Assembly (NCBI RefSeq): GCF_009931435.1
Contig: NZ_CP043414.1
Length of the DNA stretch: 64,000 nt
Direction: 5' to 3' (one strand)
Source of the DNA: Escherichia coli
GTDB lineage: Bacteria; Pseudomonadota; Gammaproteobacteria; Enterobacterales; Enterobacteriaceae
The position numbers are program-made. Position 1 is the first letter of the stretch; every line of letters starts with the position of its first letter. Shown here one piece after another: positions 9,001 through 12,000 of the stretch.

Positions 9001-12000
9001 ACGTTTTTGGGTCAACCAGACGTTGCCAGCTGTAGACAAAATCCTGTGCCGTTACCGGTGTGCCATCCGCCCATTTTGCGTTATCGCGCAGGGTGAAAGT
9101 CCAGATACGGTTGTCATTACTTTTCCACTGAGTCGCAACGCCGGGGACAATCTCCCCTTTCTCGTTCTGATTCACCAGTCCTTCAAAAAGATCGCGAATG
9201 ACCTGAATCTCTGGCAGACCCACGGCTTTAGCGGGATCCAGCGACGCAGGCTCATCTTTAATATGGCGCACCAGCTCCTGCTTCTCTGCCAGTACTGTGC
9301 CGCTCGGAACTTCTGCAGCATACGAAAGAGAAATGCTGCTGACCAACAGCGCACAACACGTGACTGAAACAGAGTGCTTCATAAGTTACCCTCAAACCTG
9401 CGTTAATAATCATGCGTAATTATTTGTTTCGCCTTAAAGAAATGCAAACAACTTCCGGCAAAAAAGTGATACAAGATCGATAACATAGCGTTGAAGAAAA
9501 GGATTTGATAATCCGCAAAATTTGCACAACACTGCCTGTAATACTTCCTGAACCAGAGACGATCATGACCGTAACTCGCCCACGCGCCGAACGCGGCGCA
9601 TTTCCGCCCGGTACAGAACATTACGGACGTTCATTATTGGGCGCGCCTTTGATCTGGTTTCCGGCCCCAGCCGCCAGTCACGAAAGTGGTTTGATTCTGG
9701 CTGGCACCCACGGTGATGAAAACTCTTCGGTCGTGACCCTCTCCTGTGCTTTGCGGACATTGACACCTTCTTTGCGCCGCCATCATGTGGTGCTGTGTGT
9801 GAATCCTGACGGCTGCCAGTTAGGGTTACGGGCCAATGCTAATGGCGTGGATTTAAATAGAAACTTTCCGGCAGCAAACTGGAAGGAAGGTGAAACGGTT
9901 TATCGCTGGAACAGCGCCGCTGAAGAACGTGATGTCGTTTTACTGACAGGTGACAAACCTGGCTCCGAACCTGAAACTCAGGCGCTGTGCCAGCTTATAC
10001 ATCGCATTCAACCTGCCTGGGTGGTCTCATTCCACGATCCACTGGCCTGTATTGAAGACCCCAGACACAGCGAATTAGGTGAATGGCTGGCCCAGGCGTT
10101 TGAATTGCCACTGGTCACCAGCGTCGGTTATGAAACGCCTGGCTCTTTCGGCAGTTGGTGTGCGGATCTCAACCTGCATTGCATCACCGCAGAGTTTCCG
10201 CCCATCTCCTCCGACGAAGCCAGCGAAAAATACCTCTTTGCGATGGCTAACTTGCTGCGCTGGCATCCTAAAGATGCAATGCGCCCGTCGTGAATTGAAG
10301 CGCCGGTTCCACATCTACCGCCAGCCAGGTCGGTCCGTCAAGATCAGCAAAACTGACCTGCGGCACCAGCGGTAAAGCGGCGCTAATGGCACGAGAGGTA
10401 CACAACATGCAGCCCAGCATCAGACTGAAACCTTGTGCACGCGCTTCGGTCGCCAGCGCCAGCGCCTCCGTCAGGCCACCCGTTTTATCGAGCTTGATGT
10501 TAACCATCTCATAGCGCCCTTGCAGCGCCTTCAGATTGCTACGGGTATGACAACTTTCATCAGCACAAATCGGTAACGGATGAATAAAATTCTCCAGTGC
10601 CGCATCGTCCTGCGCAGGAAGCGGTTGTTCAAGCATCGCAACGCCTAAATCCGCGAGCAGTTGGCAACGCGCCGCCAACCCTTCTGCACGCCAGGATTCA
10701 TTTGCATCAACGATAAGCGTCGCGTCGGGCACAGCCGTGCGAATTGCTACCATCCGCTCACTGATAAGATGGTTATCCAGCTTCACTTTCAGCAATTTCG
10801 CGCCTGCCTGCCACAGTGTTGATGCACTATTGGCCATCTGATCAGGCGTACCGATGACTACCGTCTGGGCAGTGGTGACTGTCTCGGGAAGCGTTATGCC
10901 GATCAAATCAGCCAGCGATTGCTGCTGTTTTCGCGCCGCCAGATCCCACAATGCACAATCCAGCGCATTACGTGCTGCGCCGGCAGGGAGAATTTTTTGC
11001 AACTCCTCCCGTGTCAGCCCTTTCTCTAATTGCGGCACGACGCTCATAATTTGCGCCATTACCGAGGCATCACTTTCTCCATAACGCGGATACGGCGTGC
11101 ATTCACCGGTGCCTTTAATACCTTCTTCTTCCAGTTCAACCACCACCACGCGCGCTTCACTACGACTTCCCCGAGCAATCACAAACGGGGTATGTAAGGG
11201 CCAGGCTTCCTCAAATACCTTAACGGTTCTCATCTTTACTCCTTGTTGTCGCGGTGGTCTGCGGATTAAGCGCAAATAGCGTTTGCTGTGTTATTGACAG
11301 TTAGCATAAACTAGGTGTGACGTTAACTATATGTAAACAGGAAAGATAATCATGTCACAAACCGTTCATTTCCAGGGCAACCCGGTTACAGTCGCCAATT
11401 CCATCCCGCAGGCGGGTAGCAAAGCGCAGACTTTTACTCTCGTGGCAAAAGATCTGTCTGACGTCACCCTCGGTCAGTTTGCGGGTAAACGCAAAGTGCT
11501 GAACATTTTCCCGAGTATTGATACCGGTGTTTGCGCCGCATCAGTACGTAAGTTTAACCAACTGGCAACCGAGATCGACAACACCGTTGTGCTGTGTATC
11601 TCTGCCGATCTTCCGTTCGCCCAGTCTCGTTTCTGCGGCGCAGAAGGTCTGAACAACGTTATCACCCTCTCCACTTTCCGTAACGCTGAATTCCTGCAAG
11701 CCTACGGTGTGGCAATTGCTGATGGCCCACTGAAAGGTCTGGCAGCGCGTGCCGTTGTGGTTATTGATGAAAATGACAATGTGATTTTCAGCCAGCTGGT
11801 GGATGAAATCACCACCGAGCCGGATTACGAAGCAGCTCTGGCTGTACTGCGCTAAACAACTGTGCCGTTCACTGAATCACCACCGGTGAACGGCAGTTTT
11901 TGATCTACCAGTCCCACTATTTTCCAGAGTTCCTGCCACTATTCCCCCTAACCGTTGTGCATTAAGATTGCTCTTTGCCATTATTAGCCCAGCGGAGTGA

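Follow-up and report, generated by a model that had tools for sequence, protein, structure and literature searches.

In the stretch of Escherichia coli DNA analysed here (64,000 nucleotides of contig NZ_CP043414.1 from assembly GCF_009931435.1; hereafter the window), the divergent genes mppA and mpaA, which encode a murein tripeptide-binding protein and a murein tripeptide amidase, lie only 182 bp apart, whereas in E. coli K-12 the regulator gene pgrR and several other genes are situated between them. We find that the compact arrangement is the ordinary ancestral gene order of the Enterobacteriaceae, which is already visible in public annotations, and that the difference between the two loci is an ordinary presence/absence polymorphism. 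The best explanation for the observations as a whole, to which we assign a probability of roughly 0.75, is that the window has the ancestral empty spacer, and that a plasmid-type cassette was inserted into this spacer in most other E. coli.

Compact gene order and its polarity

The first-pass annotation of the window had placed about 180 bp between the starts of mppA and mpaA, and had named ycjY, pgrR and small ymj fragments as the content of this interval in K-12. The exact distance is 182 bp, and the annotation of K-12 MG1655 bears out this gene order, with mpaA (b1326), ymjC, ymjD, ycjY (b1327), pgrR (b1328) and mppA (b1329) following each other. In the K-12-type locus used for comparison (L002), the mppA-mpaA interval measures 2,628 bp. 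Its alignment to the window leaves a gap of 2,446 bp, and searches with tblastn using K-12 PgrR and YcjY as queries gave no match within the 64-kb window at E ≤ 1e-3. Likewise, no open reading frame (ORF) for pgrR was found in the spacer or elsewhere in the window. The absence of the pgrR/ycjY/ymj segment was thereby confirmed, and mppA and mpaA indeed have one compact divergent control region in common. Both genes are intact. MppA of the window is approximately 100% identical to K-12 MppA at the protein level (tblastn), MpaA matches the NCBIfam equivalog NF007897 with 478.7 bits (cut-off 157), and YcjG, the product of the gene convergent with mpaA, also matches an NCBIfam equivalog. Apart from the insert, the two loci are alike: they share orthologues of mppA, mpaA, ycjG, tpx and tyrR in an unchanged order, and of the spacer K-12 has kept 87 bp next to mppA and 125 bp next to mpaA. 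They differ in that the 2,446-bp pgrR/ycjY/ymjDC insert is missing from the window, in that a 30-bp sequence occurs there once instead of twice, and in that the nucleotide identity of the flanks is only about 95-96%.

The ancestral state was assessed in a survey of other species. One genome per species (GTDB representatives) was scanned with MpaA, the 80 best loci were kept, and MppA, MpaA, PgrR, YcjY and YcjG were placed in each of them by tblastn. Both the mppA and the mpaA start could be placed in 71 loci, to which all spacer statistics refer. About 67 of these 71 have the two genes in divergent orientation with 138-316 bp between them, and the mode is 182-185 bp. The spacer measures exactly 182 bp in E. 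albertii, E. whittamii and three further Escherichia lineages, and the compact group also includes Citrobacter, Enterobacter, Leclercia, Kluyvera, Klebsiella, Raoultella, Kosakonia and others. Among the surveyed loci, pgrR and ycjY were found between mppA and mpaA only in Escherichia sp. E1V33. The spacer of the window is colinear with those of the other Escherichia species and the other Enterobacteriaceae, and an alignment showed that it contains five conserved blocks in the same order as the 71 species-level spacers. The window thus has all features of the compact pair, namely a divergent spacer of the 180-200 bp class, the five colinear blocks, intact mppA and mpaA genes and a convergent ycjG gene downstream, which in most of the other Enterobacteriaceae likewise overlaps or abuts the 3' end of mpaA. 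The differences are limited to drift near the two start codons and at positions 9471-9498, the unconserved centre of the spacer in the 71-spacer alignment. Because the outgroup spacers share length, colinearity and conserved blocks, the compact arrangement is the ancestral one in the family, from which that of K-12 is derived. The loss relative to a K-12 norm that the first-pass annotation had implied is therefore reversed in direction, as it is the K-12 segment that represents a derived insertion.

Two Salmonella enterica subspecies, arizonae and diarizonae, have a different insert of 3.1-3.4 kb in the mppA/mpaA spacer. As in K-12, a small foreign cassette has entered the same spacer and the mpaA-proximal blocks were kept. 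The cargo is different, as it consists of cdtA-cdtB-cdtC for the cytolethal distending toxin (positions 5449-7677 of locus L023, and locus L025), and the insertion is nearer to mppA, the adjacent blocks of which have been displaced or replaced. A common insertion point for the cdt insert and the pgrR segment was tested and rejected, since the two points are different.

The pgrR island and competing explanations

Positions 7700-9469 of the window align with the mppA side of the K-12 locus and positions 9440-10339 with its mpaA side. Because these two alignments overlap at 9440-9469, this 30-bp sequence, AAATGCAAACAACTTCCGGCAAAAAAGTGA, matches both edges of the K-12 insert. Indeed, the 2,446-bp insert of K-12 is bounded by a 30-bp direct repeat, of which the left copy (L002, 6555-6584) matches the window at 28 of 30 positions, with AT for GG, and the right copy (9001-9030) at all 30. 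In the window, the 30-bp sequence occurs once, without a scar. Two direct copies AAATGCAAACAACTTCC..CAAAAAAGTGA as in K-12 are not present, and no second copy was found in the window within 6 mismatches. The sequence is single-copy in the outgroups as well. This puts the empty insertion site between 9469 and 9470, on the border of the unconserved spacer centre. Since the predicted -35 element of mppA falls inside the duplicated 30 bp, the insertion would have left mppA with a full promoter, and mpaA has kept all conserved blocks of its side, left of its start. A duplication longer than 30 bp was also considered in view of an overlap in O157 that reaches 37 bp, as was an extension of the ancestral sequence into the left interior of the island, which has a match of about 61% to the spacer over 18 more bp; the first was rejected, and the second match is too weak, in AT-rich sequence, to support such an extension. 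A duplication of 30 bp is too long for the usual target duplication of a transposon, and the island does not encode an integrase.

The inserted segment occurs in three sizes. In O157:H7 it comprises a queH fragment, pgrR, ycjY, a second, frameshifted alpha/beta hydrolase gene and an intact SDR oxidoreductase gene. The island of the B2 strain ATCC 25922 is without the second hydrolase, and that of K-12 is without both the second hydrolase and the 3' end of the SDR gene, of which ymjD and ymjC are remnants. The deletion of the SDR 3' end in K-12 amounts to 665 bp and stops no more than one or two bases from the right repeat. The GC content of the island is 0.447 as compared to 0.513 for the window, and its Pfam domains are LysR, alpha/beta hydrolase and NAD(P)H-binding SDR. 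The segment missing from the window is most closely related to a plasmid cassette of Klebsiella variicola, K. pneumoniae and K. aerogenes, which shows 79% nucleotide identity over 90-92% of the full-length island. Related cassettes with a 68-69% match are carried by Rhizobium and Agrobacterium plasmids. On the conjugative IncF plasmid pKGB1a (NZ_CP071736.1), the order, orientation and lengths of the genes (900, 921, about 932 and 639 bp) equal those of the full-length O157 island, and the protein identities are 87.6% for PgrR, 92.2% for YcjY, approximately 86% for hydrolase 2 and 83.5% for the SDR protein. The Klebsiella plasmid cassette differs from the island in that it is not located beside mppA and mpaA and lacks the 30-bp repeat; none of it is present in the window. 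By these features, the segment is a mobile cassette of hydrolase and oxidoreductase genes under a LysR regulator, the operon of which happens to be directed towards mpaA.

The long form of the island has a 12-bp hairpin with a U-rich tail after the SDR stop codon (ATCC 25922, L085 10920-10952; ΔG of -16.2 kcal/mol, z of -4.4). This terminator-like hairpin lies inside the 665 bp that are deleted in the K-12 form, and its deletion may therefore explain the ycjY-ymjDC-mpaA transcript in K-12. The mpaA gene of ATCC 25922 is annotated as a pseudogene with an internal stop (L085 11192-11920), despite the presence of the pgrR island. In Escherichia sp. E1V33, flanks that resemble E. whittamii (86-90% identity to E. 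coli) surround a K-12-type short island that is 97.1% identical to the one of K-12 (L005 5461-7876). This mismatch between flanks and island implies that the island moves between lineages by flank recombination, and in this case indicates its transfer between species.

The course of events that we propose is as follows. In the lineage of the window the spacer would never have been interrupted, and two back-to-back promoters would still lie within its 182 bp. In most E. coli, about 97% of the complete genomes, a four-gene mobile cassette encoding the LysR regulator PgrR, the alpha/beta hydrolase YcjY, a second alpha/beta hydrolase and an SDR oxidoreductase would have been inserted after position 9469. 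As this insertion duplicated 30 bp, both mppA and mpaA would have kept their conserved upstream blocks. The cassette would subsequently have decayed to various extents, being of full length in O157, shorter in B2 and shortest in K-12, and the locus of the present strain would represent a rare, deeply diverged E. coli haplotype without it.

The distribution of the two states was determined in 5,426 complete E. coli genomes, 5,418 of which match the junction region. The contiguous, empty junction is present in 173 genomes (3.2%) and the pgrR-ycjY segment in 5,244. Among the matches listed, the empty alleles fall into classes with 99.6-100% identity to the window (seven genomes), 98.9% (nine genomes) and 97.8% (at least 44 genomes, including ST648, IMT16316 and ECONIH1). 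The genome NZ_AP027764.1 is 100% identical to the window over positions 8900-10100, while the neighbouring kilobases show 96.7-99.7% identity. We also used a chimeric query, composed of part of a rare gene of the window and K-12 pgrR, in blastn searches with a word size of 11. This query matched at a single place in 15 of the 16 closest empty-site genomes, which thus have no chromosomal pgrR, at three places in the remaining genome, RMDEC465, and at two places in 14 more distant carriers of the rare gene. These results bear on the idea that pgrR or a functional equivalent was relocated and still controls mpaA and ycjG from elsewhere in the genome. The window covers 64 kb of the genome, and E. 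coli has many LysR paralogues, which would leave room for such a gene. We nevertheless consider its relocation very improbable, as the second match that island carriers give is lacking in those 15 closest relatives, the counts of island-bearing and empty loci are complementary, neither PgrR nor YcjY has a homologue in the window, and the known PgrR binding site, the ycjY/pgrR spacer, is itself absent. The claim of the first-pass annotation that the strain lacks the local regulator therefore agrees with the data for the window and for the chromosomes of its closest relatives, except that the lack is not a loss from a K-12 norm. The probability that the island was dropped by a collapse of the two 30-bp repeats during assembly is negligible. 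Repeats can cause such collapses, but a repeat of 30 bp is far shorter than the reads, 173 independent complete genomes as well as dozens of other species share the contiguous junction, and the flanks represent a distinct haplotype that is not K-12-like.

A precise secondary deletion is the more serious competitor, although we regard it as rather unlikely. It assumes that an ancestor had the island and lost it by recombination between the 30-bp repeats, which restored an ancestral-looking spacer. Direct repeats that match at 28-30 of 30 positions in the island-bearing strains are a plausible substrate for such an event, and recombination between them would leave an identical, scar-free sequence, so that an old loss would be compatible with the sequence alone. 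Moreover, phylogroups A, B2 and E all have the island, the left junctions of which are identical, and it may be older than most of the diversification of E. coli, or may even predate its common ancestor, in which case each empty site in E. coli would be a secondary loss or an import. The empty allele of ST648 is a mosaic with K-12-type single-nucleotide polymorphisms on the mppA side and a window-like mpaA, and it shows that empty and occupied alleles recombine. These points weigh against an uninterrupted retention of the empty spacer, and it should be added that our promoter assignments are consensus matches and that the consequences for expression are predictions. On the other hand, thirty bp is short for RecA-dependent recombination, and the flanks argue against a deletion. 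At fnr, uspE, tpx, fabI and rnb, the window shares 98-99% identity with K-12, as against only 90-96% from ynaI through ycjM (positions of about 7000-31000). This latter block appears to be a deep haplotype or an imported tract. The mppA/mpaA flanks are 95-96% identical to K-12, B2 and O157, and thus 4-5% diverged from them. Among the matches listed, the mpaA-side identity to the window does not exceed 96.8% in island-bearing genomes, and flanks nearly identical to an island-bearing haplotype, as would be expected for a deletion, were not found. In three of the five flank trees, namely the neighbour-joining trees built for mppA, ycjG and tyrR, the window and E200086 branch outside the tight K-12/B2/ST648 clade. 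The single repeat copy of the window has GG, like the right copy and the outgroups, where the left copy has AT in K-12, B2 and O157, although a crossover in the first 17 bp would look alike. Lastly, position 9482 is A in the window and the outgroups and G in K-12, B2 and O157. A deep haplotype outside the island-bearing clade favours the retention or import of an empty allele over its recent deletion, and the ST648 mosaic together with E1V33 implies that the empty and occupied states have been exchanged by flank recombination.

Predicted spacer promoters and further features of the window

Scanning of positions 9300-9650 with a consensus gave one promoter-like match, a predicted sigma-70 promoter of mppA, both hexamers of which fall in blocks that are conserved across the Enterobacteriaceae (Table 1). 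A CCCTC motif that is present in at least 95% of the 71 aligned spacers, and reads GAGGG on the strand of mppA, is probably the ribosome-binding site of this gene. No plus-strand promoter of mpaA was called in the scanned region. The conserved blocks beside mpaA at 9499-9536 are probably its promoter or operator, and their conservation points to TTGATA at 9505-9510 and AACACT at 9528-9533, with a spacing of 17 nt, as a possible mpaA promoter. A sigma-54 promoter in TTTGCACAACACTGCC, an idea prompted by the titles of publications on the induction of these genes by nitrogen starvation, was ruled out by inspection, as the GG/GC spacing is one base short. NtrC and CRP half-sites were compared by eye and found unconvincing.

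Table 1. Positions of the genes, spacer elements and island genes in the window
Feature	Position	Strand	Description
mppA	7769..9382	-	Murein tripeptide ABC transporter periplasmic binding protein; 537 aa, intact ORF; named mppA in the annotation of the closest RefSeq genome
mppA/mpaA divergent spacer	9383..9564	.	182 bp, uninterrupted
CCCTC (GAGGG on the minus strand)	9389..9393	-	Probable mppA ribosome-binding site
Block AATTATTTGTTTC	9418-9430		Conserved across aligned spacers
Predicted sigma-70 mppA promoter	9419..9448	-	-35 TTTGCA 9448..9443, 18-nt spacer, -10 AATAAT 9424..9419
Block AAATGCAAA	9440-9448		Conserved across aligned spacers
30-bp sequence AAATGCAAACAACTTCCGGCAAAAAAGTGA	9440..9469	.	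Single copy in the window; direct repeat flanking the pgrR island in island-bearing E. coli
Block AAAGTGAT	9463-9470		Conserved across aligned spacers
Block AAA..ATTTGAT	9499-9509 (ATTTGAT core 9503-9509)	+	mpaA-proximal, conserved
Block TTTGCACAACACTGCC	9521-9536 (TTTGCACAACACTGC, 9521-9535)	+	mpaA-proximal, conserved
mpaA	9565 (ATG)..10293	+	Murein tripeptide amidase; 242 aa, intact; translated ORF
ycjG	10268..11233	-	L-Ala-D/L-Glu epimerase; convergent with mpaA, overlaps its 3' end
Outer-membrane efflux protein	51570-52943	-	sapF-fabI island
AcrB-type RND pump	52947-56054	-	sapF-fabI island
384-aa ORF	56054-57208	-	sapF-fabI island; possibly membrane-fusion component
TetR regulator	57324-57911	-	sapF-fabI island
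387-aa ORF			sapF-fabI island

The window differs from K-12 at several other places. K-12 lacks a 680-aa ORF that the window has between tpx and tyrR (12009-14051, plus strand). Neither Pfam nor NCBIfam gave a match for it, and about 30 of the 5,426 complete E. coli genomes, some with the pgrR island and some without, have it annotated as a hypothetical protein. Between sapF and fabI lies an island of about 7.9 kb (50398-57911, minus strand) that has no match in K-12; its genes are listed in Table 1. The IS5 element that K-12 carries between ynaJ and ynaI is absent from the window (6200-6700), and ycjV, a pseudogene in K-12, is an intact ORF of 360 aa (20437-21519).

Predicted consequences for PgrR control

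The PgrR regulon has been described as comprising ycjG, ycjXF-tyrR and ycjY-ymjDC-mpaA, with binding at the ycjY/ycjZ spacer detected by systematic evolution of ligands by exponential enrichment (SELEX; PMC5934670), and PgrR lowers the expression of mpaA in rich medium (PMC9928106). Both articles credit the regulon to Shimada, Yamazaki and Ishihama 2013 (Genes Cells 18:123), the work that they cite for it. In the first-pass annotation, PgrR had been taken for the repressor of mppA and ycjY. For ycjY this is in line with the regulon given in PMC5934670, but mppA is not named as a PgrR target in the regulon accounts of either PMC5934670 or PMC9928106.

Unlike K-12, the window encodes no PgrR and lacks the ycjY promoter, and a read-through transcript from ycjY into mpaA is not possible. 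As the regulator and its binding region are both absent, mpaA would have to use its own proximal promoter and not the PgrR-repressed ycjY promoter. The control of mpaA, ycjG and ycjXF-tyrR by PgrR, and the switch known from K-12, would consequently be unable to operate here. A wider proposal, for and against which we see about equal odds, is that the control of murein-peptide recycling by PgrR is specific to E. coli and arose as a by-product when a plasmid-type cassette, with its operon directed towards mpaA, was inserted into the mppA/mpaA promoter region, that the 665-bp deletion in K-12 then fused ycjY and mpaA into one transcript, and that the empty-site strains represent natural pre-insertion controls.

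If this proposal is true, the mpaA, ycjG and tyrR genes of empty-site strains would run on ancestral circuitry that is free of PgrR. The conserved blocks of the 182-bp spacer are the place where the ancestral control of the pathway should be sought. On the explanation that we favour, the "peptidoglycan recycling regulator" PgrR is a recently acquired accessory gene, the cognate operon of which is the hydrolase/oxidoreductase cassette. The value that this adds is modest, and consists of evidence that the link between PgrR and peptidoglycan recycling arose through the insertion of a plasmid-type cassette. Above all, the locus calls for caution in the use of K-12 as a reference, since a regulator that seems to be missing here reflects the original state of the locus. 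In about 3% of E. coli, among them the clinically important ST648 lineage, and in the sampled Enterobacteriaceae with the compact pair, mppA, mpaA and ycjG operate without PgrR, and PgrR-dependent switching between the reuse and degradation of murein tripeptides would therefore not transfer to them.

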